The notes under the pieces: generated by a model
The model's input: only the letters and a program-made list of their open reading frames with translations
Database searches by the model: none
What the model was told of the DNA's origin: nothing
From: an uncultured Nitrospiraceae bacterium
GTDB taxonomy: Bacteria; Nitrospirota; Nitrospiria; Nitrospirales; UBA2166
Length of the DNA: 64,000 bases
Direction of reading: 5' to 3'
NCBI GenBank assembly: GCA_964463965.1
Contig: CAYXED010000002.1
Span: 155,387 to 219,386 of the forward strand
Position numbers and translations under genes: made by a program
In this document: positions 15,160 through 48,624 of the stretch, piece after piece
How positions within the stretch are numbered: the first letter of the stretch is position 1
How the letters are laid out: every line of letters starts with the position of its first letter

Positions 15160-15160
15160 T

Positions 15161-31807: not shown

Positions 31808-31830
31808 CATATGGGTATGAGTAGATAATT

Positions 31831-33639: not shown

Positions 33640-33666
33640 AAACGTGCCTGGTTCTCAGCTACTGTT

Positions 33667-33906
33667 ATGACTATTAAAGACCGTGTGATTAAAGTTGTGA
33701 GTATGACGCTCCAAGTGCCAGCGAGCAGTATTAATGAAGCTTCATCACCAGACAATATTGAGCAATGGGATTCGATGCAGCACATGAATCTTATTTTGGG
33801 GCTTGAAGAAGAGTTTTCTGTACAATTTACAGATCAGCAAGTTGTTGATCTTTTAAATGTTGAGTTAATCGTGATGACGCTTGTAGAGTTGGGGGTTAGT
33901 GATTAA
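33667..33906 (+). CDS. Acyl carrier protein
   Basis: 79 aa, acidic, with an ACP pattern and a candidate phosphopantetheine Ser in EQWDSMQHMNLI. Confidence 0.8.
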   Translation: MTIKDRVIKVVSMTLQVPASSINEASSPDNIEQWDSMQHMNLILGLEEEFSVQFTDQQVVDLLNVELIVMTLVELGVSD

Positions 33907-34513
33907 TCAACCACAGCAGCGTACGTTGAGACGTGTTATCACGCACGAATGCTCTGAGTGGTTTAAGTATACAGTGATATATTTTCCTGGGAGTATCGGG
34001 TTCCGATTGCGAAGAGCATATTATGGGTTCTTTCTTAAGGGAAGGCTAGGGGAATATCCAACTATCGGTTTTGGTACTTGTCTTGAAAACTTAGATGGCC
34101 TGATTGTAGGGGATGGCTTGTTAACAGGACCGTTTGTGCATATTGTGCCTGGTGCTTGTCTTGGTATTCGTATTGGCAATCACGTTTCTATTGCTGATGG
34201 GGCATTTATTCGGTCGGCAAATCACTCTTATTTTGATCTTGATAAAAGAATACAGGATCAAGGCCATTTTAGTAAGGAAGTCAAGACATCTAAGGGGGAG
34301 AGTGCAAGTATTATCATTGAAGATAACGTACATATTGGTGCAAGGTGTATTATTCTCTCTGGGGCAAAAATTGGTGAAGGCAGCATTGTCGCTGCAGGCG
34401 CAGTTGTCTCTTCAGAGATCCCAGAAAACTCAATTGTTGCAGGAAACCCAGCAAGAGTGATTGCTAGTCGCGAAAAACTTTCGTTTTCAAAAAATATTAT
34501 TCAAACACCATGA
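33899..34513 (+). CDS. Hexapeptide-repeat (LbH) acyltransferase
   Basis: 204 aa with IGNHVSIADGAFI and IEDNVHIGARCIILSGAKIGEGSIVAAGAVV. The GTG start overlaps the ACP stop by 8 nt. Confidence 0.8.
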   Translation: MINQPQQRTLRRVITHECSEWFKYTVIYFPGSIGFRLRRAYYGFFLKGRLGEYPTIGFGTCLENLDGLIVGDGLLTGPFVHIVPGACLGIRIGNHVSIADGAFIRSANHSYFDLDKRIQDQGHFSKEVKTSKGESASIIIEDNVHIGARCIILSGAKIGEGSIVAAGAVVSSEIPENSIVAGNPARVIASREKLSFSKNIIQTP

Positions 34514-34600
34514 ATATGATAATGTTTAATCGATCTACTCACATTTTTGGCTTTTGGCTATTTATGCAGATTGGCTATGGGATGGTAGAGGTATAGATAC

Positions 34601-35380
34601 GTGTCGAGTTATATAACTACACTTTTCAATGTGAAAGGAAAAGTAGCAGCTCTCACAGGTGCTGCTGGATACCTTGTTGGAGAGATTGCGTCTGGATTTA
34701 TAAAGGCTGGGGCAAAAGTTGCTCTATTGGATAAGGATTCGGATCGACTTGAAAAAGTATTTAAGAAAATTAAGGCTGACGGAGGTGATGCGCTTGTATT
34801 ACCGACTGATGTTACCAGTAAAGAATCATTTGAGGGAGCCTTAGAGAAAGTACTTGAGCGATACAATGATGTTGATTTTCTTGTAAATGGCGCTGGTTTT
34901 AATGCGCCCACTCCCTTCCTCGATATTACTGTTGATGAATGGAATAGTATTATCAGTGTGCAGCTTACAGGTACAATGCTAGGTTGCCAAGTATTTGGTG
35001 GTTATATGGTCTCTCAAGGGAAGGGTTCCATTATTAACATTTCTTCTGCATCAGCTGGCCCACCACTTTCAAAAGCATTTACATATTCAGTTGCTAAAGC
35101 TGGAGTGAAAAACCTCACGGAAAACTTAGCGCGTGAATGGGCAATCTCTGGAGTGAGAGTCAACGCGTTACGACCAGGGTTTTTTCCAACGGAATGGAGC
35201 AAAAAACATTTTTTATCTGCAGACCGTGTTGAGGCTATTCTCAACCATACTCCCATGAAGAGATTTGGGGAGCCTCACGAATTAGTTGGTACCGTGCTAT
35301 GGTTGTGTGCAGAGTCTTCAAGTTTTGTGACTGGAGCAGAAATTAAAGTTGACGGTGGTTTTTCCGCGATGACTATATGA
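34601..35380 (+). CDS. Short-chain dehydrogenase/reductase
   Basis: 259 aa with LTGAAGYLVGEIA, NGAG and YSVAKAGVKNL. GTG start. Confidence 0.85.
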   Translation: MSSYITTLFNVKGKVAALTGAAGYLVGEIASGFIKAGAKVALLDKDSDRLEKVFKKIKADGGDALVLPTDVTSKESFEGALEKVLERYNDVDFLVNGAGFNAPTPFLDITVDEWNSIISVQLTGTMLGCQVFGGYMVSQGKGSIINISSASAGPPLSKAFTYSVAKAGVKNLTENLAREWAISGVRVNALRPGFFPTEWSKKHFLSADRVEAILNHTPMKRFGEPHELVGTVLWLCAESSSFVTGAEIKVDGGFSAMTI

Positions 35381-36135
35381 CCCTTCCTCAAACTATTATT
35401 GTGACTGGAGGCACAAAAGGCATAGGAGCCGAAATATCAAGTGCCTTTTGTAAGTCAGGGGCATCAGTTCTTATTGGTGCTAGGCATGATAATGGTTTTG
35501 TAAAAGATCTCGGCAAAACAGCCCGTTTTCAGTGCATCGATGTGTGTAGGCCTAATGATCACAAAATGCTAGTTGAAGCAGCATTAGAATGGACAGGGCG
35601 TATTGACGTGTTTATTAATTGTGCGGGTTATTCAGCATGGAAGCCTGTAGTGGGAATTGATGAGCATTTCTGGGATCAAATGATTGATACTAATCTAAAA
35701 GGCACATTTTTTGGCTGCCAAGCAGCAGCAGAGCATCTTCAAAGTCCAGGTGGATCAATTATCAACATATCAAGCTTAGCTGGAAAGCGTGGGAGTGCAA
35801 ACAATTCTGTCTATTGTGCCTCAAAGTTTGGAGTTAACGGACTGACTCAAGCTTTAGCAAAAGAACTTGGGCCACGTGGAATTAGGGTAAATGCTGTGTG
35901 CCCTGTTTATGTGCAGACCCCTGGACTGCTTAATGCGCTTCAAGATATTCATGCCCCTCCACTAGGTACAGATGTTACTCAGTATTTAGAAACGTTCACC
36001 GAAGGAAATTCGGCCTTATCTCGCTTGCCTTCTGGTAATGAAGTTGCGAAAGCTTGTATCTTTTTAGCATCTAAGGAATCGTCGGCGATTACTGGGCAAT
36101 GTATTAATGTCGATTGTGGTGTGTTACCTCAATAA
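35377..36135 (+). CDS. Short-chain dehydrogenase/reductase
   Basis: 252 aa with VTGGTKGIGAEIS and YCASKFGVNGL. ATGA overlap with the upstream gene. Confidence 0.9.
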   Translation: MTLPQTIIVTGGTKGIGAEISSAFCKSGASVLIGARHDNGFVKDLGKTARFQCIDVCRPNDHKMLVEAALEWTGRIDVFINCAGYSAWKPVVGIDEHFWDQMIDTNLKGTFFGCQAAAEHLQSPGGSIINISSLAGKRGSANNSVYCASKFGVNGLTQALAKELGPRGIRVNAVCPVYVQTPGLLNALQDIHAPPLGTDVTQYLETFTEGNSALSRLPSGNEVAKACIFLASKESSAITGQCINVDCGVLPQ

Positions 36136-36272
36136 ACTACCTACTTTCTTATTAGAGACCATATGACCAATATGGGTTTTCTATGTAGTGGCAAAGGCAG
36201 ATACCTCCCCCCCTCTATTTAATTGATGAGTAAAGTTTATCTTCCAATGAAAATTTATTAGTTGAGGCATCC

Positions 36273-37052
36273 GTGAAGGGGAAAAAAGTTATAGCTATAG
36301 TGCCAGCCAGAATGGCCTCATCGCGCTTTCCAGGTAAGCCACTCACAATGATCCATGGTTTGGCGATGGTTGAACATGTTCGCCGGAGAGCTTTGTTGGC
36401 TAATGGTATTGATGAGGTTGTTGTTGCGACGTGTGATAAAGTTATTGCTGATACCGTTATTTCCGCAGGAGGTGAAGCAGTTATGACCTCGGATAAACAT
36501 GAGCGTTCAACTGAACGTGTTGCTGAGGCAATGCAATCTCTTACTGGAGATGTTGTTGTAGTTGTTCAGGGGGATGAGCCTCTGCTTTTGCCGCACACTG
36601 TTGAACGTGTGGCAAACCCTTTAGTTGAAAGAGATGATGTTCAATGTGCAGCGTTTCTCTCAAATATTAAGCATGAAAGCGATTATGATAACCCGAATAT
36701 TGTGAAGGCAGCATGTGATCAGAGAGATTTTGTCTTCTTTTTGTCTCGGGCAAGAATCCCCTATGTTCGACGGCCAGGTTCTTTGCCTATATATCGCGAG
36801 ACTGGAATTAGGGCATTTAAATCCACTTTTCTTCCTGTCTATGCACAGTTAAGGGAAACACCTCTTGAGAAAGCAGAGGAAGTCGATATGCTGCGTATAT
36901 TGGAACATCGATACTCAATCTTGGGTGTTTTAGGAGATGAAGAAACGATTGGCGTAGACCATAAAGAGGATATTGAAGGTATTGAATGTAGCTTGAAAAC
37001 AGATCCTGTACAAATAGCCCTACACAAGGCTATTACCGGAGGCAGTGCATGA
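36273..37052 (+). CDS. KdsB-like 3-deoxy-ulosonate cytidylyltransferase
   Basis: 259 aa with AIVPARMASSRFPGKPL and VVQGDEPLL, closely following the KdsB pattern. GTG start. Confidence 0.8.
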   Translation: MKGKKVIAIVPARMASSRFPGKPLTMIHGLAMVEHVRRRALLANGIDEVVVATCDKVIADTVISAGGEAVMTSDKHERSTERVAEAMQSLTGDVVVVVQGDEPLLLPHTVERVANPLVERDDVQCAAFLSNIKHESDYDNPNIVKAACDQRDFVFFLSRARIPYVRRPGSLPIYRETGIRAFKSTFLPVYAQLRETPLEKAEEVDMLRILEHRYSILGVLGDEETIGVDHKEDIEGIECSLKTDPVQIALHKAITGGSA

Positions 37053-38101
37053 AAGCGGTCATTATTGGATACGGATATATGGGGGAAATTCGAAAGCGTG
37101 TTATAGACACGATTGATGGGCTTACCCTTGAAGCAATTTGTGATCCAAATTTAAATTCTAATGATACAAATCATGATTGCCCCATTTACGATGATTATCG
37201 TGAGGTAATTGACAAGGTATGCCCTGATATAGTTTTTGTTTGTACCCCTAATAGGTTTTCTCCAGAAGTTTGTGTATACGCTATGGAGCGAGGGCATCAT
37301 GTCTTTTGTGAAAAACCCCCTGGAAGAAATCTTCAGGATATTAGGAAAATTATTGCTGCAGAACAGGGAGCTCAAAATGTGAAATTGATGTTTGGGTTCA
37401 ATCATCGCCATCATCCAGCCATTCTTGAGGCAAAGGCTTTGGTTGATGCTGGGCGAATGGGGCGTATTATGTGGTTACGTGGAGTATATGGGAAATCTGG
37501 TGGATTTGGGAGTAGTTTTGAAAGTTCATGGCGTAATGATCCTGCTATTTCTGGTGGTGGGATTCTTTTAGATCAAGGAATTCATATGCTTGATCTGTTT
37601 AGGTTTTTTTGTGGTGATTTTGAGCATGTTCAAGGATTATTAACAACGGCATGCTGGGATATTCCTGTTGAGGATAATGCGTTTGTACTGTTACGCAATA
37701 AGCAGGGACAGATTGCTCAACTCCACTCTTCGGCGACATTATGGAAACATACTTTTCATATAGAACTTGGGCTAGAGAGAGGATATTTAATCGCCCATGG
37801 GCTTCTGTCAAAGACCGGAAGCTATGGGAGAGAGACATTGATTATTGGGCGTAAGCCTGCCACTGCTGATGAAGCTGCCGTGGGTAACCCTCGAGAAGAA
37901 ATTATTTATTTTGATAAAGATTTGTCGTGGGATGTACAAGTTCTAGAGTTATTGCACTGTATAGAGAATGATTGCCCTGTGGTTGAAAGTTCATCGAGTG
38001 ATGCCTTGAAGGTAATGGAGCTGATTGATGCCGTATATCGGGAAGCAGGAGCAAATGTTGAGCTATCGGTTGCGTCGATGACTGCAGAGGAACGGTCATG
38101 A
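37049..38101 (+). CDS. Gfo/Idh/MocA-family oxidoreductase (paralogue of 6564-7550)
   Basis: 350 aa with VIIGYGYMG, VFCEKPP, FGFNHRHH and GGGILLDQGIHMLDLF. Confidence 0.9.
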   Translation: MKAVIIGYGYMGEIRKRVIDTIDGLTLEAICDPNLNSNDTNHDCPIYDDYREVIDKVCPDIVFVCTPNRFSPEVCVYAMERGHHVFCEKPPGRNLQDIRKIIAAEQGAQNVKLMFGFNHRHHPAILEAKALVDAGRMGRIMWLRGVYGKSGGFGSSFESSWRNDPAISGGGILLDQGIHMLDLFRFFCGDFEHVQGLLTTACWDIPVEDNAFVLLRNKQGQIAQLHSSATLWKHTFHIELGLERGYLIAHGLLSKTGSYGRETLIIGRKPATADEAAVGNPREEIIYFDKDLSWDVQVLELLHCIENDCPVVESSSSDALKVMELIDAVYREAGANVELSVASMTAEERS

Positions 38102-39123
38102 AAACTGTTGTTTTTGAGCAAAACTGTATGGAGTTTGAAATCAAACCTCATGAAATGTTGGGGAAATATCTTGCCTTGAGTGGAAGAGAGATTGAGTCAT
38201 GGCTTTTAGATTCTGACCAATTGGTAGAGTGTGTTTGTCCAGGATGCCAAGAGAGTAAGAGTGTTATCGCATTTGAAAAGCTTGGTCTGACATATCGTGA
38301 GTGCGTTCATTGTAGGTCTGTGTATGTAACGCCTCGACCACAGGAAACGCTCCTTGTTGATTTCTATAGAAACTCACGTGCTGCAAGATTTTGGAGAGAG
38401 AGTATTCTTTTAGAAACAAAAAATATGAGACGAGAAAAAGTCTTTAAGCCTCGTGCTCAATGGTTGTTGGGAGTAGTGGATCGTTATTATCCATCGGCTG
38501 CTAAAGGTATTGTTATTGGTTATCATAATGACTTGCTCATTCAGGAGCTTTCGTCCCAAGAAAAACATCTTTTTGAAATGATAGTTACTAATCCAATTGC
38601 AGATATTGAATATGAAAAAACGAACTTTCAGAATGTCCGTATTTGCCCTGAGAATATTGTAGATGTACCTTCACATGGACCTGTCGAGCTGTTTTTGGCA
38701 TTTGACATATTAGATCGTTGTTATGATGTTAATACAGTACTTTCAACTGCAAGTCAGGTTTTGTCTCCAGGAGGGCTCCTTCTGGGTAGTACGGTGTTAA
38801 GTACTGGGTTTGATATACAAGTATTATGGGATCGCTCTGAAAATACATATCCCCCTGACCGGCTTAATCTTCTTTCAGTTGAAGGCTTAACTACGTTGTA
38901 TGAACGACATGGCTTTGAGGCAATTGAATTTAGCACCCCGGGTATGTTTGATGTTGAGGTTGTTGAACGAGCAATACGTTCAAGCTCGGAAGAGAACTGG
39001 CCAAAATTTATTCGTTATGTACTTGAAAGTAGGAACGAAGAGGCTAAAAGTGATCTTCAAGAATACCTTCAGCGGTATCGTTTGAGCTCATTTGCACGAT
39101 TTGTTTTGAGGAAGAAAAGCTAA
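38098..39123 (+). CDS. Zn-ribbon plus class I methyltransferase-like protein
   Basis: 341 aa. N-terminal CPGC...CVHC four-Cys ribbon. The later segment VELFLAFDILDRCYDVNTVLSTASQVLSPGGLLLGS resembles MTase motifs II-III. The glycine-rich SAM loop is not obvious. Confidence 0.5.
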   Translation: MKTVVFEQNCMEFEIKPHEMLGKYLALSGREIESWLLDSDQLVECVCPGCQESKSVIAFEKLGLTYRECVHCRSVYVTPRPQETLLVDFYRNSRAARFWRESILLETKNMRREKVFKPRAQWLLGVVDRYYPSAAKGIVIGYHNDLLIQELSSQEKHLFEMIVTNPIADIEYEKTNFQNVRICPENIVDVPSHGPVELFLAFDILDRCYDVNTVLSTASQVLSPGGLLLGSTVLSTGFDIQVLWDRSENTYPPDRLNLLSVEGLTTLYERHGFEAIEFSTPGMFDVEVVERAIRSSSEENWPKFIRYVLESRNEEAKSDLQEYLQRYRLSSFARFVLRKKS

Positions 39124-39127
39124 ATTT

Positions 39128-39937
39128 TTGAATGGTGACAATATGTTAGCAGAAAAAATACACAAAATTTTCCAAGAAGGAAAAGTTAGTATTGGATCTT
39201 GGATGTCTATGGCTCATGTTTCAATTGCTGAAATTTTAGCAGGAGCTGGGTTTGATTGGGTCGTGATTGAGACGGAGCATACTGCTATTGATGTGTCAGA
39301 AGTATTGCGTCTTATCATTGCGCTTGAAGGAGAAGGGACTGTCCCGTTGGTGCGGCTTGCTTGGAATGATCCTATCCAAGCTAAAGCAGTATTGGATTCA
39401 GGGGCAGCTGGTGTTTTAGTTCCCAATGTCAATACCAAGGAAGATGCTGAATTAGCCGTTAGTAGTGTCAAGTATCCTCCATTAGGTTCTCGTGGTGTCG
39501 GTCTTGCACGGGCGCAAAGATATGGAGAAGATCTGCAGCACTATGTTGAGCGTGCGAATCGAGACAGTTTACTTATGGTGCAGATTGAACATATTGATGC
39601 TGTGAATAATATTGACAGTATTCTTTCCGTGCCTGGTATTACTGGCACATTTATTGGTCCATATGATTTATCTTTATCTATGGGGCTAGTAGGGCAATTG
39701 TCTCACCCTAAAGTGCAGGCGGCCAAACAGCGTGTATTGGAAGCGACTAAGGATCATGGGCTGGTTCCTGGAATTCATTTAGTACACTCAGATACTGCAG
39801 CCGAAGAATTTAAGCAATGTGTAGAAGTGGGCTATAAATTCATCGCCTTAGGTACTGATATTTTATTTCTTGGAAACTCTTGCCGTGATCTTCACGCTAA
39901 AACGCGTAACTTCCTCAAAAAAATAACAGTCAATTGA
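39128..39937 (+). CDS. HpcH/HpaI-family class II (pyruvate) aldolase
   Basis: SWMSMAHVSIAEILAGAGFDWVVIETEHTAIDV and VRL...GVLVPNV match the family pattern. The start is TTG 39128 or ATG 39143. Confidence 0.8.
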   Translation: MNGDNMLAEKIHKIFQEGKVSIGSWMSMAHVSIAEILAGAGFDWVVIETEHTAIDVSEVLRLIIALEGEGTVPLVRLAWNDPIQAKAVLDSGAAGVLVPNVNTKEDAELAVSSVKYPPLGSRGVGLARAQRYGEDLQHYVERANRDSLLMVQIEHIDAVNNIDSILSVPGITGTFIGPYDLSLSMGLVGQLSHPKVQAAKQRVLEATKDHGLVPGIHLVHSDTAAEEFKQCVEVGYKFIALGTDILFLGNSCRDLHAKTRNFLKKITVN

Positions 39938-40593
39938 CCGTACTTCGTGCCATCGTTTTGGACTTTGATGGTGTGCTCGCCGAGTCTAACGAAGTCAAGG
40001 AGCATGCCTTTGAAGACTTATTTGCGCTATATCCGCTCTATCAAGAGGACATGCGGAACTATCATAGAGAGCACTACTCCATGCCACGTGAAGAGAAGTT
40101 TAAATATTATGTTTCAAATTTCATGGGGAGAAAAAATGATTTGGCTATGACCTCAACTATGTCAAAGCAGTTCTCAGACTTTGTAAAACCTCTCGTAATT
40201 AGTGCTCCGGATGTGCCTGGAGCTAGGGAATTTCTTAACGAGTTTTCAACAAAAATTCCCCTATATATCTCATCTGTGACTCCGCAATCTGAATTATTAG
40301 AAATTGTTGCTGCAAGAGGGATAGCTCCTATGGTTCAGGGAATTTTTGGAAATCCGCCATGGAGAAAACCCGATGCAATATGTGAGATTTTGAAACGTGA
40401 AAATGCAGATCCGTCAGAGGTTGTATTTATTGGGGATTCTCCGTCAGATTTTTATTCCGCAAAAGAAGTTGGAGTAAGGTTTATTGGGCGAGACAGTGGA
40501 GTGCTATTTGATGGCATTGAGGTGAAGCTACATAAAAATTTATTTATAATTTCAAGCATTGTACGAGAATTGGTAAAGGGGCGAGATGACTGA
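39934..40593 (+). CDS. HAD-superfamily phosphatase (phosphoglycolate-phosphatase-like)
   Basis: 219 aa with VLDFDGVLAES (DxDG) and IGDSPSD. TTGA overlap with the upstream gene. Confidence 0.8.
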   Translation: MTVLRAIVLDFDGVLAESNEVKEHAFEDLFALYPLYQEDMRNYHREHYSMPREEKFKYYVSNFMGRKNDLAMTSTMSKQFSDFVKPLVISAPDVPGAREFLNEFSTKIPLYISSVTPQSELLEIVAARGIAPMVQGIFGNPPWRKPDAICEILKRENADPSEVVFIGDSPSDFYSAKEVGVRFIGRDSGVLFDGIEVKLHKNLFIISSIVRELVKGRDD

Positions 40594-41521
40594 CGTCGAT
40601 ATTTTTGTAACATTATCTACTTTTTGCGAAGACTCTGATGAACCAATGATGGTTTTGGAACAAAGTGGTTTTACTTTCAATGTAAACTCTCTTGCACGGC
40701 GTATGACTTCTGGGGAAGTAATTGAATTAGGAGGGAAGGCGAGGGCGTTTGTTGCGGGTCTAGAGAAATATGATGCAGAAACCATTTCACAAATGCCTAA
40801 TATATCTTGCATAAGTCGCTGCGGGGTTGGGATTGATAATATTGATTTGAAAGTTGCAGAACAGAGAAATATTGAAATTTTAAATACTCCTGAGGAGCCT
40901 ATCATTGCGGTAGCCGAAATGACATTGGCCATGATGCTTGCGTTGCTTCGTCAGCTTCCCCGTGTGAATGCTTTAATGAGGGATAGAAAGTGGAAACGTG
41001 TGCGAGGAAACCTTCTTGCGGGCAAGACAATTGGAATCATCGGAATGGGGCGTATTGGGAAGCGTGTAATTGAGCTTGTTAGGGCATTCCGTGCACGTGC
41101 TATTGTGGTAGATCCTTTCCCTGATATTAATTGGGCACGTGAGAATGAGGTGGAGCTGGTCGATATGAATGAGCTCCTTCAGCGCGCTGAAATTATTTCC
41201 ATTCACGCATCTCCATCCGGGGACAATGTGTGTTTATTGGATGAAGAAAATATCCAGAAAATTCGTCCTGGAGCGTGGTTAATTAATATGGCTAGGGGAG
41301 ATATGGTAAATGATGTAGCCCTCGCTAGTGCGCTTTTATCCGGACAACTGAGCGGTGTTGGTATGGATGTGTTTTCTACCGAACCTTATAGTGGCGTTCT
41401 CTGTGATAGTGATCGTGTGATGCTATCTCCACACCAAGCAACATTAACTGTAGAAACTCGTGAAAAAATGGAACTTAAGGCAGTCAAAAATGCTGTTGAC
41501 TACCTTAAAGCACACGGTTGA
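40586..41521 (+). CDS. D-isomer-specific 2-hydroxyacid dehydrogenase (phosphoglycerate dehydrogenase-like)
   Basis: 311 aa with GKTIGIIGMGRIGKRV and the Arg/Glu/His triad context (MARGDMV, DVFSTEP, SPHQA). Confidence 0.85.
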   Translation: MTDVDIFVTLSTFCEDSDEPMMVLEQSGFTFNVNSLARRMTSGEVIELGGKARAFVAGLEKYDAETISQMPNISCISRCGVGIDNIDLKVAEQRNIEILNTPEEPIIAVAEMTLAMMLALLRQLPRVNALMRDRKWKRVRGNLLAGKTIGIIGMGRIGKRVIELVRAFRARAIVVDPFPDINWARENEVELVDMNELLQRAEIISIHASPSGDNVCLLDEENIQKIRPGAWLINMARGDMVNDVALASALLSGQLSGVGMDVFSTEPYSGVLCDSDRVMLSPHQATLTVETREKMELKAVKNAVDYLKAHG

Positions 41522-43137
41522 CTTTTTTAAAGGCTCTGGATATGACAGAAGAGCAGTTTAGCTATGTTACCGCTGCATGCGACAGAATTCTAACCCGATC
41601 AAATGTTCCTCTTGAGTGGGTAGCCATCCCCTGGCTTCATGTGCATTGTGGCCATCCACATTATCTGGCCAACTACATGGGTCTTTTAAAAAGTATGCAT
41701 GTTTCTGATTGCCAGGGGAATGATGCCTATGATAAGGGCATGAGTTTAGAAAAACTCTTCAGCGCAACGTATAAAATAGGGAAGACTGCAAAAAATATAT
41801 TATGGGGATCTCCATATAAAAAAAGTAAATCTTCATGCAAGTTGGATTTCGGGCACACCAATCAGATAGATATTATTATAGTGTCATGGCTAGTCAATAC
41901 CGCTCATCTTGAGCATCAAGATGATTTCTATTTTGGGAGCCTTCAGTCACTTCTAGCTGGGAGAGGCCTAAATTCACTGCTTGTGTTGAAGAATCAGACA
42001 GGACTTCCTACTTATTCTCTCCTTGATCGTGCGCGACGCATTGGGGCTAGCGCAAGGATAATGCTTCCAGATACAAATACTCTTTTTAGGGAGCTTGGTT
42101 ACCTTAAGCGTGTTGTTGGGGCACGATATCAACTTAATGTTTTAGAGAATGAGGCATTCTCTATCATAGAGAAAAACGTGTGCCGGGAGGCAAAACAACG
42201 TGTTGTGTCAAATGGCACAATTGCTAATCTTCGTTTGCATGACCAGATGGTTGATTTGTGTCAGCAGGTTCGACCATCTATCGTAATTTCCTTGTATGAA
42301 GGATACTCTTGGGAACGATGCCTTTGGAGAGCAGTTCGAGATTCTAAGGTGTCTGCCTGTCGTGTGGGGTATCAACATACAGTATTACGGAAACATGCGC
42401 ACTCTGCTATCCGGACATTTGGGCAAACCAATCAATATGATCCAGATATTATTCTTGCTCTCGGCGAGATAACACAAAATATATTACAAAGGAAAGATGC
42501 CACTAAAAACTCTCCAGTATTTTCCTTTGGATCTCATCGACGTATGCCACGTAAAGTATTAGATGGTAAACCAAGTTTTATCTCAACGTTTCTTGTGCTG
42601 CCTGAGGGTATGCCAACAGAAGCAATTTTTCTCTTTGAATTTGCGATCACTTGTGCAAAACGATTAGAGAAAGTTAAATTTATTTTTCGTACTCACCCTA
42701 ATTTAGACTTTCTAAGCATTAAAGGGAATATTCGGGGATTTGATGATGAATTGCATAATGTTGAAGTGAGTAACAAACAACTACTTGAAGATGATTTAGA
42801 GAGGTCAGGTTACGTAATGTATCGGGGGTCGTCATCAGTCCTATATGCAGTAATTGCAGGATTGAAGCCATTTTATATTGAAAAATTTGGTGAAATGTCA
42901 ATTGATCCATTGTACGAATTAAAGACATGGAGAGAAACTATTCATTCCATAGATGATTGGGAAAGTATATTTTTGAAATCTCAGATTGATAAAGATAAAA
43001 ATGGTGATCAGGGTTGGGAATCTGCTCGAGCGTACTGTGATAGGTATGCTCCGCCTGTTCAAGGACTAGCAATTGACAGTATGTTGAAGGCGGCAATTGG
43101 TTTTAAAAACACACCGCCTGTGCAGCATAGAGGATGA
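41518..43137 (+). CDS. Hypothetical protein, 539 aa (candidate transferase)
   Basis: Long ORF with no motif I recognise. The start is TTG 41518 (TTGA overlap) or ATG 41542. Confidence 0.6.
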   Translation: MTFLKALDMTEEQFSYVTAACDRILTRSNVPLEWVAIPWLHVHCGHPHYLANYMGLLKSMHVSDCQGNDAYDKGMSLEKLFSATYKIGKTAKNILWGSPYKKSKSSCKLDFGHTNQIDIIIVSWLVNTAHLEHQDDFYFGSLQSLLAGRGLNSLLVLKNQTGLPTYSLLDRARRIGASARIMLPDTNTLFRELGYLKRVVGARYQLNVLENEAFSIIEKNVCREAKQRVVSNGTIANLRLHDQMVDLCQQVRPSIVISLYEGYSWERCLWRAVRDSKVSACRVGYQHTVLRKHAHSAIRTFGQTNQYDPDIILALGEITQNILQRKDATKNSPVFSFGSHRRMPRKVLDGKPSFISTFLVLPEGMPTEAIFLFEFAITCAKRLEKVKFIFRTHPNLDFLSIKGNIRGFDDELHNVEVSNKQLLEDDLERSGYVMYRGSSSVLYAVIAGLKPFYIEKFGEMSIDPLYELKTWRETIHSIDDWESIFLKSQIDKDKNGDQGWESARAYCDRYAPPVQGLAIDSMLKAAIGFKNTPPVQHRG

Positions 43138-43146
43138 GGAGGAAGC

Positions 43147-43743
43147 ATGGTATATGCAGCTCAGTATTTGGCGGAAACTGCTCAGATTGTTGAGAAACTC
43201 GACCCTAATGCCATTGAAAAGCTTGCACGGATGATTGTTGAGATGCGTGCACAAGGAGGACGGTTATTTATTTTGGGTGTTGGTGGAGGTGCTGGGCATG
43301 CTTCTCATGCTGTATGTGATTTCAGGAAGATTGCTGGCATTGAGTGTTATGCGCCAAGTGATAATGTATCGGAGTTGACTGCTCGAGTAAATGATGAAGG
43401 GTGGGATACTACATATGCAGAGTGGCTTAAAATTAGCCGTCTTTGTGGCAATGATCTTATCCTTATTTTTTCCGTTGGAGGAGGTGACCGAGAGAGGAAT
43501 GTAAGTCAAAACATTGTGTGTGCAATCGATTATGCTCAGAAAGTAAGGGCAAAGGTCATGGGGATTGTTGGGCGTGATGGGGGGTACACTGCAAAGGTTG
43601 CAGATGCGTGTGTGATAGTTCCCACTGTAAATCCAAAATCTGTGACGGTTCATACTGAAGGGTTTCAAGCACTTCTCTGGCATCTATTAGTGTCACACCC
43701 TGATGTGCAAAAGGGTCCTATGAAATGGGAGACACTCCAATAA
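43147..43743 (+). CDS. SIS-domain isomerase (GmhA-like phosphoheptose isomerase family)
   Basis: 198 aa with LFILGVGGGAGHASHAVCDF and ILIFSVGGG. Confidence 0.8.
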   Translation: MVYAAQYLAETAQIVEKLDPNAIEKLARMIVEMRAQGGRLFILGVGGGAGHASHAVCDFRKIAGIECYAPSDNVSELTARVNDEGWDTTYAEWLKISRLCGNDLILIFSVGGGDRERNVSQNIVCAIDYAQKVRAKVMGIVGRDGGYTAKVADACVIVPTVNPKSVTVHTEGFQALLWHLLVSHPDVQKGPMKWETLQ

Positions 43744-43759
43744 TTGGAGGTATGGGAAA

Positions 43760-44443
43760 ATGCCAATTTTTCTAGACTCAAGTAACCTTGATGAAATTAA
43801 GCCATTCCATCGGATGGGTATCGTGCGAGGGGTAACCACCAATCCAACCATTATGCTTAAAGACGGAGTTGCTGGAGGCATGCAGGCAATTGAAGAGAGA
43901 TCAAAAGCAATTGCTACGCTTATTGCCCCTTATCCTCTTTCTGTTGAAGTGACTACAAATGATAGGAAAAAAATGCTTGAACAGGCTAGGGCGTATGCTG
44001 AGTGGGCAGATAACATTGTGGTCAAAATTACCATTCATGGACCAGAGGGAGAACTTGAGAACATGGAAGTTATTCATGAACTAGAGACTGTTCATGATGT
44101 TCGTGTCAATGTCACAGCCATGATGAGTGCTCAGCAATGCTTATTAGCCGCAATGGCGGGAGCAACATATGTGTCACTTTTTGGTGGGAGAGTCAACAAT
44201 ATGGGTTATAACGCTTGTGGAGAAATTCGGAGACTTCGACAGGTTCTAGATGATTTTGATCTTCCTGCAAAAATTATTGTTGGGTCGACGAGAGAGGTTC
44301 TTAATGTTATTGAATGGTTAGAAGCAGGTGCACACATTGTAACGACTGTTCCAAATTTGATACGTGGTATGCTCGTCCACCCGTATTCAAAAGAAACAGT
44401 CCAAATGTTTCTTCGGGATGCCAAGAAGTCCGAAGAATTATAA
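43760..44443 (+). CDS. Transaldolase-family protein, short type (TalC / fructose-6-phosphate aldolase-like)
   Basis: 227 aa with N-terminal FLDSSNLDEIKPFHRMGIVRGVTTNPTI and a Schiff-base lysine context NIVVKITIHG. Confidence 0.85.
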   Translation: MPIFLDSSNLDEIKPFHRMGIVRGVTTNPTIMLKDGVAGGMQAIEERSKAIATLIAPYPLSVEVTTNDRKKMLEQARAYAEWADNIVVKITIHGPEGELENMEVIHELETVHDVRVNVTAMMSAQQCLLAAMAGATYVSLFGGRVNNMGYNACGEIRRLRQVLDDFDLPAKIIVGSTREVLNVIEWLEAGAHIVTTVPNLIRGMLVHPYSKETVQMFLRDAKKSEEL

Positions 44444-44453
44444 GGAGTCAGTG

Positions 44454-45224
44454 ATGAAAGTTGTGCTTCTCTGTGGAGGTTTTGGTACTAGACTTCAGGA
44501 AGAAACTGAAGTTAAGCCAAAGCCAATGATCGAGATAGGGAGAAAGCCAATCTTGTGGCATATCATGAAAAACTATGAGTCGCAGGGCTTTAATAACTTT
44601 GTTGTTGCTCTTGGCTATAAGGGAGAATTAATTAAAGAATACTTCATGCATTATAGATACCGGTTTGGGAGTATGTCTATCCGCTTAAAAACTGGGGATG
44701 TGATGGAGTCTGGTACTCCCGATGAAGATTGGCTGATTCATCTGTTAGATACAGGGTTGCATACTCAAACTGGAGGTCGTGTCAAACGTGCGGCACAGTA
44801 TATTGGTAATGATGCATTCATGATGACATATGGGGATGGTCTTTCAAATGTTAACTTGGCGAAGCTTCTTGAGTTTCACAAAAGCCATGGGAAGTTGGCA
44901 ACTATGACAGCAGTACGACCTCCAGCTCGGTTTGGCGGCATCAGTTTAAATGGGGATCATGTTGTGAGATTTGAAGAAAAACCTCAGATTGGAGAAGGAT
45001 GGATCAATGGAGGTTTTTTCATTTTTGAATCTAAAATTATTGAATATATTGAGAGAGATGAAACCATCTTAGAGAGGGAGCCTCTCGAACGCCTGGCAAA
45101 GGAAGGACAATTGATGGCATATCGACATGAAGGTTTTTGGCAATGTATGGATACTCTCCGTGATGTTAGGCTTTTAGAGGCACTTTGGGAAAAAGGTACT
45201 CCCGCGTGGAAAAACTGGGAGTAG
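44454..45224 (+). CDS. rfbF: Glucose-1-phosphate cytidylyltransferase
   Basis: MKVVLLCGGFGTRL, with typical length and C-terminus (WQCMDTLRD). ATG 44454 is preceded by aaggag. The track's 5' extension lies inside the upstream gene. Confidence 0.9.
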   Translation: MKVVLLCGGFGTRLQEETEVKPKPMIEIGRKPILWHIMKNYESQGFNNFVVALGYKGELIKEYFMHYRYRFGSMSIRLKTGDVMESGTPDEDWLIHLLDTGLHTQTGGRVKRAAQYIGNDAFMMTYGDGLSNVNLAKLLEFHKSHGKLATMTAVRPPARFGGISLNGDHVVRFEEKPQIGEGWINGGFFIFESKIIEYIERDETILEREPLERLAKEGQLMAYRHEGFWQCMDTLRDVRLLEALWEKGTPAWKNWE

Positions 45225-45240
45225 GGAAGGACATTGGACA

Positions 45241-46227
45241 ATGAGCGCGACTTTTTGGAAGGGCCATAAGGTATTTGTTACCGGAGCAACTGGAATGGTT
45301 GGTTCATGGCTGGTCAAGCAGTTGTTGAGTGCCAAAGCTGATGTAGTAGCGTTGATTCGAGATGCAGATCCTCATTCAGAGCTTCTTAGGAGTGGGGATC
45401 TGCATCGTCTATCTGTCGTAAATGGAGCATTAGAGGATTATCATACAGTTGAACGTGCCATTAATGAGCATGAGATTGATACAGTATTTCATCTTGGAGC
45501 CCAGACAATTGTAGGTGTTGCTCATCGTTCACCTCTGCAGACATTTGAGGCAAATATTCGTGGTACTTATAATTTACTTGATGCATGTCGAGTACACGGA
45601 GAAAAGGTAAAGCGAGTAATAATTGCTTCAAGTGACAAGGCATATGGAGCACAGGAGAATCTTCCTTATACTGAGGCTACTCCTTTGACAGGTAATCACC
45701 CTTATGAAATTTCAAAAAGTTGTGCTGATAGGCTCGCACAAGCATATCATCATACATATGGTTTGCCTGTCACCATCGCACGATGTGGGAATGTTTATGG
45801 TGGAGGTGATCTAAACTGGAGTCGAATCGTTCCAGGAAGTATCAGATCGTTCTTTCTTGGAGATTCACCTATCATTCGCAGTGATGGAACCTATGTAAGG
45901 GATTTCATATACGCAAAAGATGCAGTATTAGCCTATTTGACTCTTGGGGAAAAGCTCACAAATAACGATGTCTGTGGGCAGGCTTTTAATTTTAGCAATG
46001 AAACACCACTCACAGTTCAGGAAATACTATCAATAATTCAGAAAGCAATGGGATGTGAAGATATTAAACTAGATATACGTAATGATTCAAAAGGAGAGAT
46101 ACATTCACAATATCTTTCCGCTAAAAAATCTAAAGATATTTTAAAATGGAAACCTACATATACGCTTGAATCAGGTTTAGCAGAAACCATTGAATGGTAT
46201 AAGAATTTTCTTGAAGAGAGGGTGTGA
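45241..46227 (+). CDS. rfbG: CDP-glucose 4,6-dehydratase
   Basis: 328 aa with VTGATGMVGSWL and YEISKSCADR. It lies immediately downstream of rfbF. Confidence 0.9.
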   Translation: MSATFWKGHKVFVTGATGMVGSWLVKQLLSAKADVVALIRDADPHSELLRSGDLHRLSVVNGALEDYHTVERAINEHEIDTVFHLGAQTIVGVAHRSPLQTFEANIRGTYNLLDACRVHGEKVKRVIIASSDKAYGAQENLPYTEATPLTGNHPYEISKSCADRLAQAYHHTYGLPVTIARCGNVYGGGDLNWSRIVPGSIRSFFLGDSPIIRSDGTYVRDFIYAKDAVLAYLTLGEKLTNNDVCGQAFNFSNETPLTVQEILSIIQKAMGCEDIKLDIRNDSKGEIHSQYLSAKKSKDILKWKPTYTLESGLAETIEWYKNFLEERV

Positions 46228-46676
46228 TGATTGAAGGAGTACTAGTTCATTCACTTAAGCAGTTTCCAGATGAACGTGGAAGTGTCATGCATATGCTTCG
46301 TTCGGACGCCCCTCATTTCCAAAAATTTGGAGAGATTTATTTTTCCGTTGTGTACCCTGGGGTAGTCAAGGGATGGCATCTTCACAAGGAAATGACACTA
46401 AATTATGCCGTTATTTCTGGAAAAATTAAATTGGTTCTTTACGATGACAGAGCTAACTCTTCCACTCACGGGGAGGTAAATGAGTTATTCATAGGGGATT
46501 CAAATTATGTTTTAGTACAAATTCCTTTTGGCATTTGGAATGGCTTTAAGGGGGTTGGAGTAACTCCGGGAATAGTCGCAAATTGTTCGACGATACCTTA
46601 CCGGGAAGATGAAATTGTTCGCCGAGATCCCTTTGATCCTTCAATTCCATACACTTGGGATTTAAAACATCAATGA
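46224..46676 (+). CDS. RmlC-like cupin sugar epimerase (4-keto-6-deoxyhexose 3,5- or 5-epimerase family)
   Basis: 150 aa with FPDERGSVMHM and GEIYFSVVYPGVVKGWHLHKEM. The start (GTG 46224 or ATG 46227) overlaps the upstream gene by 1-4 nt. Confidence 0.75.
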   Translation: MMIEGVLVHSLKQFPDERGSVMHMLRSDAPHFQKFGEIYFSVVYPGVVKGWHLHKEMTLNYAVISGKIKLVLYDDRANSSTHGEVNELFIGDSNYVLVQIPFGIWNGFKGVGVTPGIVANCSTIPYREDEIVRRDPFDPSIPYTWDLKHQ

Positions 46677-47539
46677 AAAAAAAAGTTCTTATTGTAGGTG
46701 GTAGGGGAATGTTAGCCTCAGACTTTGAAAAGACTGCTCTTGCACAGGGGCATGATGTTTTATCGCTTTCTCACCAAGATCTTGACATCACAAGCCCGCA
46801 GTCTGTGCAGAAAACTATACAAGACTTTACTCCTTGCTGTGTTCTTGATGCAGCTGGCGTAGATGTTGATACATGTGAAATTGACCCAAATCATGGCTAT
46901 CGGACTCATACGTGGGGAGCAATGCTCCTTGCGCAGGCCTGTGAGCGCATTGGTGCCACATTTGTTTATGTCAGCTCATGTGGCTTATTTGGAGATGACC
47001 TAGTATTTCATTCTGAGTACGACTCAGTAGTCTTAAAAACAAAATACTCCAAATCAAAGTACTTTGGTGAGCTGGAGGCAAAAAACTGGTGTCGGCGAGT
47101 ATTTATTATTAGGTGCGGATGGTTATTTGGAGGAACACCAGATCACCGAAGAAATTTTGTTGTACAGCGTATTAAAGAAGCACAAAGCAAAAATGTGATT
47201 AACAGCGCTGGAGATAAGTATGGTAGCCCTACACTAACGAGTGACTTGTCTGAAAAAATTCTCCAGCTTCTTGAAACTAATCTCTATGGAACTTACCACA
47301 TTTCAAATGTAGGAGGTTGTTCGAGATATGAATATACATCCTTCATACTTCATACCTTTGGGCTGGGCACCCATGTTGACAAAGTTGACTCCTCTTCATT
47401 CCCTCGTCCTGCTTCAACGCCTAACTCCGAAATGCTTGAAAATGCAAATCTTCAATTTTCAAATATTGGTGTTTTAACGCCCTGGCAAGAGGCAATTGAG
47501 CGTTATATCAGAACATTGAAAGATAAAACGTTTGTATGA
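46673..47539 (+). CDS. RmlD-like 4-keto-6-deoxyhexose reductase (SDR)
   Basis: MKKKVLIVGGRGMLASDF. ATG 46673 makes an ATGA overlap with the upstream stop. Confidence 0.75.
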   Translation: MKKKVLIVGGRGMLASDFEKTALAQGHDVLSLSHQDLDITSPQSVQKTIQDFTPCCVLDAAGVDVDTCEIDPNHGYRTHTWGAMLLAQACERIGATFVYVSSCGLFGDDLVFHSEYDSVVLKTKYSKSKYFGELEAKNWCRRVFIIRCGWLFGGTPDHRRNFVVQRIKEAQSKNVINSAGDKYGSPTLTSDLSEKILQLLETNLYGTYHISNVGGCSRYEYTSFILHTFGLGTHVDKVDSSSFPRPASTPNSEMLENANLQFSNIGVLTPWQEAIERYIRTLKDKTFV

Positions 47540-48624
47540 TGCCAGCTATAAGCGTCCTCATGACTGTGTACAATGGGGAATCCTTTTTATCTGATGCAAT
47601 AAAGAGCATCTTAAATCAAACGTTTAATGATTTTGAATTTATTATTGTTGACAATGCTAGTACTGATAGTTCTGTAAAAATTATAGAGTCATTTGTTGAC
47701 TCTCGCATACGTCTTGTAAAAAATATTTCAAACCAAGGACAAACTAAGGCATTAAATATTGGATTGAGGGTAAGCCGTGGGCGGTATATCGCGAGAATTG
47801 ATGCTGATGATGTGGCTCGAGCACATCGCTTAGAAACTCAATTTAATTTCCTTGAAAAGCAGACTAAATATTCTGTTGTTGGAAGCCATGTTTGTTTAAT
47901 TGATTCTCGTGGAGCACAATGGCACACACTGTATTTTCCTGTGAACTATGAAGATATTACTTGGGTAGCCTTGCATGCAAGCCCCGTTGCACATTCAGCA
48001 GTTTTGATGAGAAGTTCAGTAATACTTGAACTTGGAGGCTATGATGAAAGTTTTGTTATAACCCAAGATTATGCTTTGTGGACTGCTTTGATAGGCAAGG
48101 GACACCACATTACAAATTTTGATAATGTTTTGACTTGTCTTAGGGTTCACCCTGGGCAGTTGTCTCGAGGGGATGCTCAGTCAAAATTAGTTAATGAGAC
48201 AACACGTCTTATTAGGAAGAATGTCGCGAGTCAACTGAATATTTATGCTAGTGATGAAGAAACTAAAGGTTTGTTTTGCTTGTTACGACACTCTGCAAGT
48301 GTGTCCAGCTATCCCATTGAGACATCGCTCAAGTTGTTCTATAGAATTTCTTCGGTTTTCAAATATCGAGTGAATCAGAACTCTTTTTTTTATGTTAAGA
48401 CTCTAGTTCGGCTGGCAATTCTTCGAAAAGAACTGCCATTTTTAGTCAGGGGAAAAATTCTTTTTAGAGCAGTGTTTTCACTTTTTTTTACTAAGAATGC
48501 ATATAGTGCTGCCTTTTTTATTTGTAGGTGGATTTTTACAGGAAAATTTTTTGGTGCACTTCGAATGGAATTGTGGCGGAGAAGAAGGCAAGATTTAGGC
48601 AAGCATTTATCGGAATTACAATAG
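47536..48624 (+). CDS. Family 2 glycosyltransferase
   Basis: ISVLMTVYNGESFL...QTFNDFEFIIVDNASTDSS and ARIDADD (DxD). The C-terminal tail is amphipathic and hydrophobic. Confidence 0.9.
   Translation: MMPAISVLMTVYNGESFLSDAIKSILNQTFNDFEFIIVDNASTDSSVKIIESFVDSRIRLVKNISNQGQTKALNIGLRVSRGRYIARIDADDVARAHRLETQFNFLEKQTKYSVVGSHVCLIDSRGAQWHTLYFPVNYEDITWVALHASPVAHSAVLMRSSVILELGGYDESFVITQDYALWTALIGKGHHITNFDNVLTCLRVHPGQLSRGDAQSKLVNETTRLIRKNVASQLNIYASDEETKGLFCLLRHSASVSSYPIETSLKLFYRISSVFKYRVNQNSFFYVKTLVRLAILRKELPFLVRGKILFRAVFSLFFTKNAYSAAFFICRWIFTGKFFGALRMELWRRRRQDLGKHLSELQ

Follow-up and report, generated by a model that had tools for sequence, protein, structure and literature searches.

A conserved cassette pairing a KdsB-like cytidylyltransferase with an HpcH-family aldolase suggests an aldolase-based route to CMP-activated ulosonic acids

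Introduction

The pathways of 3-deoxy-D-manno-octulosonic acid (Kdo), N-acetylneuraminic acid (Neu5Ac) and 2-keto-3-deoxynononic acid (Kdn) follow a common logic of isomerase, synthase, phosphatase and cytidylyltransferase. To our knowledge, all known routes to keto-acid sugars activated with cytidine monophosphate (CMP), namely Kdo, Kdn and the sialic, legionaminic and pseudaminic acids, use the phosphoenolpyruvate (PEP)-dependent synthases KdsA or NeuB. Enzymes of these two types serve as markers in genome mining and in inhibitor design. The HpcH-family aldolases join pyruvate to aldehydes reversibly. We describe here a gene cassette in which an aldolase of this family lies beside a KdsB-like cytidylyltransferase. 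It was found in a stretch of 64,000 nucleotides of an uncultured Nitrospiraceae bacterium (contig CAYXED010000002.1), the whole of which is hereafter called the window. With a confidence a little above even, we propose that this cassette is a self-contained and horizontally mobile pathway that makes, tailors, CMP-activates and transfers a 2-ulosonic (alpha-keto acid) sugar, the aldolase forming the carbon-carbon bond. The gene content, the gene order and the conservation of the cassette, its intact catalytic motifs, its predicted folds and the lack of KdsA and NeuB within it are established.

Gene content of the cassette and proposed scheme

All coordinates are positions in the window, the L-numbers are labels of related aldolase loci, and domains were called by Pfam and NCBIfam profile searches with the cut-offs of the models. 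Six open reading frames (ORFs) succeed each other on the plus strand (36273-37052, 37049-38101, 38098-39123, 39128-39937, 39934-40593 and 40586-41521), and the junctions of this run are overlaps of 4 to 8 nucleotides or a gap of 4 nucleotides. An earlier note on this DNA, made from the sequence alone, had reported six coupled genes; the ORFs are real and the Pfam and NCBIfam assignments agree with the domains that it had named. The boundary drawn around these six genes was too narrow, as the functional unit is a conserved cassette of about 12 genes located roughly between 33899 and 44443:

33899..34513, plus strand: hexapeptide-repeat (left-handed beta-helix, LbH) acetyltransferase, accessory member of the cassette (Pfam Hexapep)
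34601..35380, plus strand: short-chain dehydrogenase/reductase (SDR) 1, oxidoreductase of the sugar-acid dehydrogenase type (adh_short_C2)
35377..36135, plus strand: SDR oxidoreductase 2, directly 5' of the cytidylyltransferase (adh_short_C2)
36273..37052, plus strand: KdsB-like cytidylyltransferase, putative CMP-ulosonate synthetase (CTP_transf_3, PF02348, 134 bits)
37049..38101, plus strand: Gfo/Idh/MocA oxidoreductase, PtmF domain family (Pfam GFO_IDH_MocA)
38098..39123, plus strand: zinc-ribbon and class I methyltransferase-fold protein, 341 aa (weak Methyltransf_23 match and predicted structure)
39128..39937, plus strand: HpcH/HpaI class II metal-dependent aldolase, proposed ulosonic acid synthase (PF03328, 132 bits)
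39934..40593, plus strand: HAD-IA phosphatase (Pfam HAD_2 and Hydrolase)
40586..41521, plus strand: D-2-hydroxyacid dehydrogenase, similar to SerA, the phosphoglycerate dehydrogenase (PGDH) (2-Hacid_dh_C, 158 bits)
41518..43137, plus strand: predicted GT-B-fold glycosyltransferase of an undescribed family, 539 aa (predicted structure)
43147..43743, plus strand: single-domain SIS_2 sugar(-phosphate) isomerase, distantly GmhA-like, 198 aa (SIS_2, 30.7 bits)
43760..44443, plus strand: short transaldolase of the TalC/FSA type (TAL_FSA, 123 bits)

The start of the cytidylyltransferase is the GTG codon at 36273, since it is needed to retain the nucleotide-binding motif PAR...PGKP. The true start of the aldolase is probably the ATG at 39143 rather than the TTG at 39128, the gene callers giving a protein of 264 aa. 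A scan of the region 33600-45300 for promoters and terminators gave counts equal to or below those expected from shuffled sequences and was uninformative on the operon boundaries.

In the scheme that we propose, the transaldolase and the GmhA-like SIS isomerase would turn sugar phosphates of central metabolism into an aldose phosphate dedicated to this pathway. The aldolase, in place of a PEP-dependent KdsA or NeuB, would then add pyruvate to this aldose phosphate and form a 4-hydroxy-2-keto acid phosphate, i.e. a 3-deoxy-2-ulosonate phosphate. The HAD phosphatase would remove the phosphate group and thereby render the aldolase step irreversible. Redox or epimerisation reactions of the Gfo/Idh/MocA enzyme, of both SDRs and, in loci that have it, of the SerA-like dehydrogenase would tailor the sugar, and the methyltransferase-family proteins and the acetyltransferase would decorate it. 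Finally, the KdsB-like enzyme would activate the acid sugar with CTP, and the GT-B protein would transfer it from the CMP-sugar to a glycan in which a CDP-derived 6-deoxyhexose is present as well. The synthase role of the aldolase, the nature of the sugar and the label "3-deoxy, Kdo-like" belong to this scheme and are deduced from the genes. As the cassette has no aminotransferase, its product is unlikely to be a diamino sugar. The supply of an amino sugar by a pair of SIS isomerase and SDR had also been considered and was dropped, PtmF being an oxidoreductase and not a SIS isomerase.

Conservation across genomes

A database search with the aldolase recovered more than 120 clusters at a threshold of at least 70% identity. 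A genome scan limited to one genome per species detected 46 aldolase loci, of which 31 encode an aldolase with 55-78% identity and 15 an aldolase below 45%. The 31 species genomes with an orthologue span more than ten phyla. Their hosts are found in the Chloroflexota, Thermotogae, Acidobacteriota, Bacteroidota, Verrucomicrobiota and Gemmatimonadota, in Caulobacter, Chlorobium and Longimicrobiales, among the delta-, beta- and gammaproteobacteria, and in a Bifidobacteriaceae bin; one Bacteroidota host, Sediminibacterium roseum SYL130 (L026, NZ_JAACJS010000002.1), is in culture. The neighbouring genes were counted by tblastn with the proteins of the window in those loci whose contig reaches far enough, the 18 long loci being those above 15 kb. 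For the high-GC loci L011, L015, L025, L027 and L038 the simple ORF calls were spurious and the tblastn table was used. In every assessable locus of the 31 genomes, the neighbours keep their order and their strand, and they are present as follows:

KdsB-like cytidylyltransferase: 23 of 23 assessable loci
Gfo/Idh/MocA oxidoreductase: 25 of 25
Methyltransferase-like protein: 28 of 28
HAD phosphatase: 26 of 27
2-hydroxyacid dehydrogenase: 23 of 26
SDR2: 18 of 18
SDR1: 17 of 18
SIS isomerase: 17 of 18
Transaldolase family: 11 of 18
539-aa GT-B protein: 11 of 18

None of these neighbours was detected by tblastn beside the 15 aldolase paralogues that are less than 45% identical. The same set of genes occurs on three metagenome contigs whose genes were called independently and carry precomputed Pfam labels, the SerA-like dehydrogenase being absent from two of the three. 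This grouping is far beyond chance. The earlier note had set beforehand that the genes should be conserved as a unit, and they are collinear across more than ten phyla. In a plasmid collection all matches were below 60% identity; among the matches listed there were only HpaI-type relatives at 43.5% or less, and no cassette was seen. The aldolase is the best-conserved protein of the cassette, with 66-78% identity across phyla against 48-61% for the cytidylyltransferase and 36-58% for the HAD phosphatase. Identity as high as this between phyla is a sign of horizontal spread. In the literature searched, no account of the cassette was found.

The aldolase

The aldolase is recognized by the family model PF03328 (cut-off 25 bits) and falls below the NCBIfam equivalog cut-offs for HpaI (214 bits vs 368.8), GarL (187.8 vs 406.75) and RhmA (159.8 vs 441). 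Its identity to known class II pyruvate aldolases is about 38-40%. The alignment to HpaI and GarL is unambiguous and reveals that the residues His45, Arg70, Glu149 and Asp175 of HpaI correspond to His51, Arg76, Glu154 and Asp180, which are invariant across the clade of cassette aldolases. Judged by these residues, the enzyme is probably catalytically intact. Two substitutions distinguish it from HpaI: Glu48 stands for Asp42 and His217 for Leu212. His217 is present in all 30 cassette orthologues examined. As a marker unique to the clade it was ruled out, several non-cassette paralogues also having a histidine at this position.

Catabolism is the function of every characterised close relative of the aldolase (HpaI, GarL, YfaU) and of SDR1 (mannonate oxidoreductase, KduD), and the cassette could accordingly be read as a sugar-acid degradation cluster captured into polysaccharide loci, in which the aldolase cleaves its substrate like GarL, RhmA and HpaI. 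We regard this as very improbable. The transporter, kinase, dehydratase or regulator that one would expect of a catabolic operon is missing from the block, and the aldolase is under the equivalog cut-off of every catabolic aldolase. The linkage of the block to a cytidylyltransferase, methyltransferases, an acetyltransferase and glycosyltransferases is obligate, and in every genome it lies in a locus of the O-antigen or capsule type.

A second alternative keeps the architecture of the pathway and changes the donor of the aldol reaction from pyruvate to hydroxypyruvate. The SerA-like dehydrogenase would oxidise 3-phosphoglycerate to 3-phosphohydroxypyruvate, the HAD phosphatase would free hydroxypyruvate, and the aldolase would add it to an aldose; the product would be a 3-hydroxy-2-ulosonic acid, similar to D-glycero-D-talo-octulosonic acid (Ko), and not a 3-deoxy sugar. 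The genes of the aldolase, the phosphatase and the PGDH-like protein are indeed consecutive and overlapping, the dehydrogenase is nearest to D-3-phosphoglycerate dehydrogenases, and the phosphatase is of the capped class IA with phosphoglycolate phosphatase as best named match. There is also a precedent at the active site. In the aldolase SwHKA, the acceptance of hydroxypyruvate was attributed to F210, an aromatic residue where other class II pyruvate aldolases have a conserved leucine (PMC10099721). In HpaI (Leu212) and the GarL-type aldolase, the site of His217 is occupied by a leucine, which, judged by its position, would be equivalent to the one replaced by F210. Several observations nevertheless make a hydroxypyruvate donor unlikely. 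The dehydrogenase is the least constant core gene, being absent from three of 26 genome loci and two of three metagenome contigs where the phosphatase is kept, and a histidine at the position of His217 is shared by some non-cassette paralogues. Moreover, a phosphorylated acceptor would require a second phosphatase, and no CMP-Ko-type donor is known to us. Ko itself is formed by hydroxylation of Kdo after transfer. For the suggestion of the earlier note that a pyruvate aldolase could fill the condensing role, the intact catalytic residues and the lack of KdsA in the loci speak in favour; the identity of the donor is the part that does not stand firmly, as it could be hydroxypyruvate.

The cytidylyltransferase

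The KdsB-like protein is above the cut-off of the kdsB model TIGR00466 (163.3 bits vs 155.2) and of the subfamily model NF003952 (233.5 vs 193), and below that of the equivalog NF003948 (165.7 vs 281). Its best-scoring NCBIfam models are all KdsB, as are all its sequence matches in the PDB, whereas the PseF model gives only 27.7 bits for a cut-off of 205.7. It is 34% identical to KdsB of Escherichia coli, with which the residues Arg10, Ser13, Arg15, Lys19, the motif Q98-G-D100-E-P and Asp235 are conserved. By these residues the enzyme appears to keep the CTP/Mg core of KdsB, and its designation as KdsB-like in the earlier note is borne out. It differs from the E. coli enzyme at, for example, His181, Tyr185, Glu210 and Gln211, residues which presumably line the sugar site.

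Known synthases around the cassette

No KdsA was detected by tblastn (query E. coli KdsA, E-value at most 1e-5), either in the window or at any of the 46 related loci of the genome scan. A NeuB homologue was detected by tblastn in just three of these 46 loci, at the far upstream edge in L016 and L031, and in L027. Of the 31 cassette loci, 27 to 28 are without NeuB within 10 kb and none has KdsA within this distance. The three metagenome contigs have neither the NeuB nor the DAHP_synth_1 Pfam family within 10 kb, and there is no NeuB between 33899 and 44443 in the window.

The main rival of our proposal is that the KdsB-like enzyme activates the sugar of a canonical PEP-dependent synthase encoded elsewhere, either a NeuB of the window or a genomic KdsA or NeuB. 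The aldolase, the HAD phosphatase, the dehydrogenase, the transaldolase and the SIS isomerase would then make, for example, a side group derived from glycerate or a keto acid, or a precursor aldose. The window holds two NeuB, one NeuC and two further CTP_transf_3 genes, a protein at 17481 in which a cytidylyltransferase is fused to a Gfo domain adjoins NeuB, and a glyceryl-loading protein of the FkbH type is encoded just upstream of the cassette. The order SDR, cytidylyltransferase, Gfo also mirrors that of ptmA, legF and ptmF in the clusters of legionaminic acid (PMC4481668). Other data go in the opposite direction and lead us to consider this explanation doubtful. The two other cytidylyltransferases of the window already serve NeuB pathways, and NeuB and KdsA are missing within 10 kb in the large majority of the loci and on all three metagenome contigs, as given above. 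The aldolase is the best-conserved protein and is never apart from the cytidylyltransferase, the cassette also occurs in bins assigned to lineages devoid of lipopolysaccharide (LPS), and the KdsB-like protein is below the KdsB equivalog cut-off. The earlier statement that the route would not rely on the known synthases is supported by the related loci, without KdsA and, in 27-28 of 31, without NeuB, and does not fully hold for the window, which has two NeuB genes upstream.

Several points weigh against an aldolase-based pathway. All of its biochemical steps are inferred from the genes. The aldol condensation of pyruvate is thermodynamically less driven than the PEP route, and the characterised HpcH enzymes that we know of are catabolic. 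The scheme leaves the SerA-like dehydrogenase unaccounted for, and the core methyltransferase-fold protein, with its degenerate S-adenosylmethionine (SAM) motif, is given no definite role. The SIS protein, inspected by eye, is without the phosphate-binding serine/threonine motif of GmhA, so that a phosphorylated acceptor is uncertain. As for the synthases, the two NeuB of the window (12447 and 16459) lie 20-24 kb upstream, or 14-24 kb if the two other cytidylyltransferases are included, and three other loci have NeuB within 10 kb. Most hosts are Gram-negative (diderm) bacteria, in which we assume that kdsA is to be expected elsewhere in the genome, the searches having covered the loci only. 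The monoderm hosts (Bifidobacteriaceae, Chloroflexota) are bins of metagenome-assembled genomes (MAGs) whose taxonomy may be wrong.

Phosphatase, isomerase, transaldolase and tailoring proteins

The HAD protein has phosphoglycolate phosphatase as best named match and belongs to the capped class IA, of the small-substrate type. In NCBIfam it reaches 31.2 bits with HAD-SF-IIIA for a cut-off of 44.6 and has no match to a KdsC model, so that by family it is not a counterpart of KdsC. Its gene is located directly 3' of the aldolase in 26 of 27 genome loci and on the three metagenome contigs. It stays with the aldolase even where the dehydrogenase is absent, which favours a KdsC-like role. The SerA-like dehydrogenase scores 212 bits with the PGDH model (cut-off 454) and its best PDB matches are D-3-phosphoglycerate dehydrogenases.

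The SIS protein scores 44 bits with the gmhA model (cut-off 209), and its PDB matches are phosphoheptose isomerases with E-values of about 1e-7. It has no CBS domain and no match to PF01380 in Pfam. It is 61-69% identical in 17 of the 18 long loci. The earlier note had pointed to an SIS isomerase nearby; it does exist at 43147 and is conserved, and it is GmhA-like rather than KdsD-like. The transaldolase has its best PDB matches with the transaldolases of Thermoplasma, Bacillus and Thermotoga. It is 76-77% identical in L007 and L010, and a member of the family with about 31% identity adjoins the SIS gene in many other loci.

The acetyltransferase has its best NCBIfam match, below the cut-off, with a WbbJ-like O-acetyltransferase, and a homologue is located 5' of the SDR pair in 11 loci. 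SDR1 is 59-68% identical in other loci. In NCBIfam it comes nearest to D-mannonate oxidoreductase (260 bits, cut-off 281), then to gluconate-5-dehydrogenase and KduD; this proximity to enzymes of free sugar acids such as mannonate oxidoreductase and KduD fits a chemistry on a free keto-deoxy acid. The Gfo/Idh/MocA protein, 54-72% identical across loci, clusters with the other Gfo gene of the window at 6564, and the solved structures closest to it are those of inositol, levoglucosan and glycoside 3-dehydrogenases.

The 341-aa protein remains below the cut-off of Methyltransf_23 (20.8 bits vs 27) and a sequence search of the PDB returned nothing useful for it. Its AlphaFold model, with a predicted local distance difference test (pLDDT) value of 90, shows a zinc ribbon and a class I methyltransferase fold. 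The Foldseek matches include the sugar C3-methyltransferases KijD1, TcaB9 and MtmC, which combine a zinc domain and a methyltransferase in the same architecture. Cys47, Cys50 and Cys72 are invariant in the family and Cys69 is present in at least 90% of sequences. In the whole family, VGYHN stands in the place of the SAM motif I (GxGxG), so the activity of the protein is uncertain, and this core protein (38098-39123) may be a pseudo-methyltransferase with a new role. A paralogue of about 310 aa with a canonical SAM motif is located 5' in most loci (e.g. L026 4655-5602), and none is found in the window.

In L054 a B12-binding radical SAM enzyme (8426-9988) is inserted between the methyltransferase-like gene and the aldolase, and another one adjoins NeuB in the window (10113-12284). 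The placement of these enzymes suggests C-methylation of the acid sugar in some variants, and the variant cassettes with extra methyltransferases and the B12-binding radical SAM enzyme (L054) suggest heavily methylated products.

The GT-B protein

The 539-aa protein has no match in sequence searches of Pfam, NCBIfam or the PDB, and has 166 homologues among 5.8 billion proteins. Its AlphaFold model (pLDDT 90.1, predicted template modelling score (pTM) 0.91) displays the GT-B fold with two Rossmann domains. The top Foldseek matches are GT-B enzymes with E-values of about 1e-9 and also 2-epimerases; the polysialyltransferase 5wcn comes at rank 18, and generic GT-B enzymes score equally well. The residues Arg391, His393 and Pro394 (R-x-H-P) are invariant in the family, which has a member in 11 of the 18 long loci. 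This protein is likely the transferase for the CMP-sugar, a putative donor specificity suggested by the genomic context, with the invariant R-x-H-P residues and the match to the polysialyltransferase as further hints.

Other large unannotated proteins occupy the same position elsewhere (clusters c11, c13, c19 and c36) and have, by eye, similar H-P and Ser/Thr motifs. Proteins of 500-700 aa without Pfam match are encoded at the edges of the cassette in L016 (1735-3378), L017 (780-2351), L007 (5080-6696), L022 (12413-14383) and L013 (2049-3965); by eye, they too have H-P and Ser/Thr motifs like those of the GT-B protein and may represent further undescribed glycosyltransferase families. In the window, a 695-aa ORF (27565-29652) aligns in part with ORFs of L032 and L025, at 27-30% identity.

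Setting of the cassette in the window

The window is part of a metagenome scaffold of 587 kb, and from about 760 to 60200 it consists of one co-directional region of glycan biosynthesis. Up to about 60.2 kb all genes are on the plus strand and the GC skew is strongly positive (about 0.15-0.29 per 2-kb segment); it falls to about 0 at the strand flip, where a UvrA-like gene (60254-62893) lies on the minus strand. Besides the two NeuB genes, the region contains these features linked to acid sugars or to the cassette:

15137: NeuC-like 2-epimerase
17481-19247: CTP_transf_3 domain fused to Gfo/Idh/MocA, 588 aa, beside NeuB
21802: CTP_transf_3 domain fused to a cupin
24164-27539: PtmE-, LegB- and LegC-like genes
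44364..48624, plus strand: CDP-6-deoxyhexose pathway and GT2 glycosyltransferase, associated with the cassette (TIGR02623, 346.8 bits vs cut-off 300; Pfam)

The KdsB-like protein is thus the third cytidylyltransferase of the locus, next to two further CTP_transf_3 genes which lie in or beside the NeuB gene group, and at least two distinct CMP-acid sugars are probably produced by this locus. The interval 12447-24213 also encodes an ATP-grasp protein, a HAD protein, a PglD-like acetyltransferase, a methyltransferase and a class III aminotransferase. The fusion at 17481 mirrors the overlapping pair of KdsB-like and Gfo genes and the adjacency of legF and ptmF, and hints at a functional coupling.

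The CDP-6-deoxyhexose block is composed of a glucose-1-phosphate cytidylyltransferase, a 4,6-dehydratase, a 3,5-epimerase-like protein and a reductase, and its product is probably the second sugar of the same glycan. Genes leading from CDP-glucose to a 6-deoxyhexose, with a GT2, are also found 3' of the cassette in L032, L053 and L054. Further downstream in the window there are glycosyltransferases, an AsnB-like amidotransferase, a sulfotransferase and a phosphoglycosyl transferase at 57440. The AsnB-like gene occurs 3' of the cassette in the window (region 50982-52943), in L053 and on the third metagenome contig. The presence of the 6-deoxyhexose genes and of the amidotransferase near the cassette elsewhere speaks for a conserved glycan of several sugars, and less for a sugar cassette that stands by itself. 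The sulfotransferase gene (54084-54971) lies within the glycan cluster, and the glycan may be sulfated.

Upstream of the cassette, a fusion of a MaoC dehydratase and an SDR at 30626 is followed by a 602-aa protein with an FkbH domain (322.8 bits, cut-off 146.65) and by a 79-aa ORF (33667-33906) without Pfam match in the position expected of an acyl carrier protein (ACP). The interval 30626-33906 looks like an acyl side-chain system of the glyceryl-ACP type in a glycan locus. Another group of genes at 4769-8892 encodes an SDR, a sugar phosphate cyclase similar to 3-dehydroquinate synthase (5445-6536), the second Gfo/Idh/MocA protein (6564), a second SIS_2 protein which is more GmhA-like (7561) and a PIG-L deacetylase (8224). 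It could be a cyclitol or carbasugar branch of the polysaccharide cluster.

Significance

We give somewhat less than even weight to a broader proposal, according to which the HpcH-family class II aldolases would be a third, non-homologous family of ulosonic acid synthases beside KdsA and NeuB, and would lead to a previously unseen CMP-activated acid sugar, which enzymes of a new GT-B family would attach to surface glycans in many environmental bacteria. This sugar may be a higher-carbon one (C9-C11, from a heptose or octose phosphate made by the transaldolase and the SIS isomerase), or may be 3-hydroxylated, C- or O-methylated and acetylated. Were an aldolase-based route widespread, present surveys would overlook an entire class of acidic sugars on cell surfaces. 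The synthesis of ulosonic acids would gain a new biocatalyst, in which a pyruvate aldolase of biosynthetic function works together with a cytidylyltransferase. The glycosyltransferases would gain a new family, and the unassigned CMP-linked keto acids that mass spectrometry now reveals, e.g. in the SugarBase preprint, could be approached from the side of the genes. With Sediminibacterium roseum SYL130, one of the hosts is in culture, which opens the hypothesis to direct tests.

Comparison with known systems

The cassette displays a logic parallel to that of the Kdo pathway, with a SIS-fold isomerase, the addition of a three-carbon unit, a HAD phosphatase and a cytidylyltransferase of the KdsB family. 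In the place of KdsA, however, stands a class II TIM-barrel aldolase that is unrelated to it, and three of the four defining enzymes of the Kdo pathway fail: there is no KdsA, the SIS protein is not KdsD-like and the HAD protein is not of the KdsC (IIIA) type. The cassette has in addition a transaldolase, three to four oxidoreductases, methyltransferase-family proteins, an acetyltransferase and the GT-B transferase. With HpaI, GarL, RhmA (YfaU) and SwHKA, the aldolase shares the PF03328 fold family and identical catalytic and metal-binding His, Arg, Glu and Asp residues. It differs from HpaI, GarL and RhmA by forming a distinct tight clade and by its context, which is glycan biosynthesis whereas theirs is catabolism.

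The pathways of nonulosonic acids (NeuC/NeuB/NeuA and those of legionaminic and pseudaminic acids) have in common with the cassette the type of end product, a CMP-activated alpha-keto acid sugar, and the location in surface-glycan loci. Unlike them, the cassette has no NeuB and no aminotransferase, and its cytidylyltransferase is KdsB-like and not NeuA- or PseF-like. The 539-aa protein resembles the polysialyltransferases of GT38 and the beta-Kdo transferases of GT99 and GT107 by its predicted GT-B fold and its invariant His-Pro pair, but no sequence similarity to any Pfam or PDB family was detected.

In the biosynthesis of lincomycin, the transaldolase LmbR and the GmhA-like isomerase LmbN make an octose 8-phosphate. 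The pair of transaldolase and SIS isomerase may be likened to this system, with the difference that here an aldolase and a cytidylyltransferase follow instead of a kinase and a guanylyltransferase. By this analogy, the pairing of a transaldolase with a GmhA-like SIS protein suggests that the precursor is an unusual and possibly higher-carbon aldose phosphate. Unassigned CMP-linked higher-carbon keto acids, each with two N-acetyl groups, were described in Magnetospirillum (2026 SugarBase preprint). Such a chemistry thus exists without known genes, and nothing ties these compounds to the cassette.

In Plesiomonas, PtmF is an oxidoreductase of 326 aa and PtmA a protein of the size of an SDR (PMC4481668). 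The SDR, cytidylyltransferase and Gfo genes of the cassette match ptmA, legF and ptmF in domain families and in order, the cytidylyltransferase being of a different subfamily. From this likeness to the ptm module and to the fusion at 17481, the redox module may be a shared accessory of the CMP-ulosonic acid pathways.

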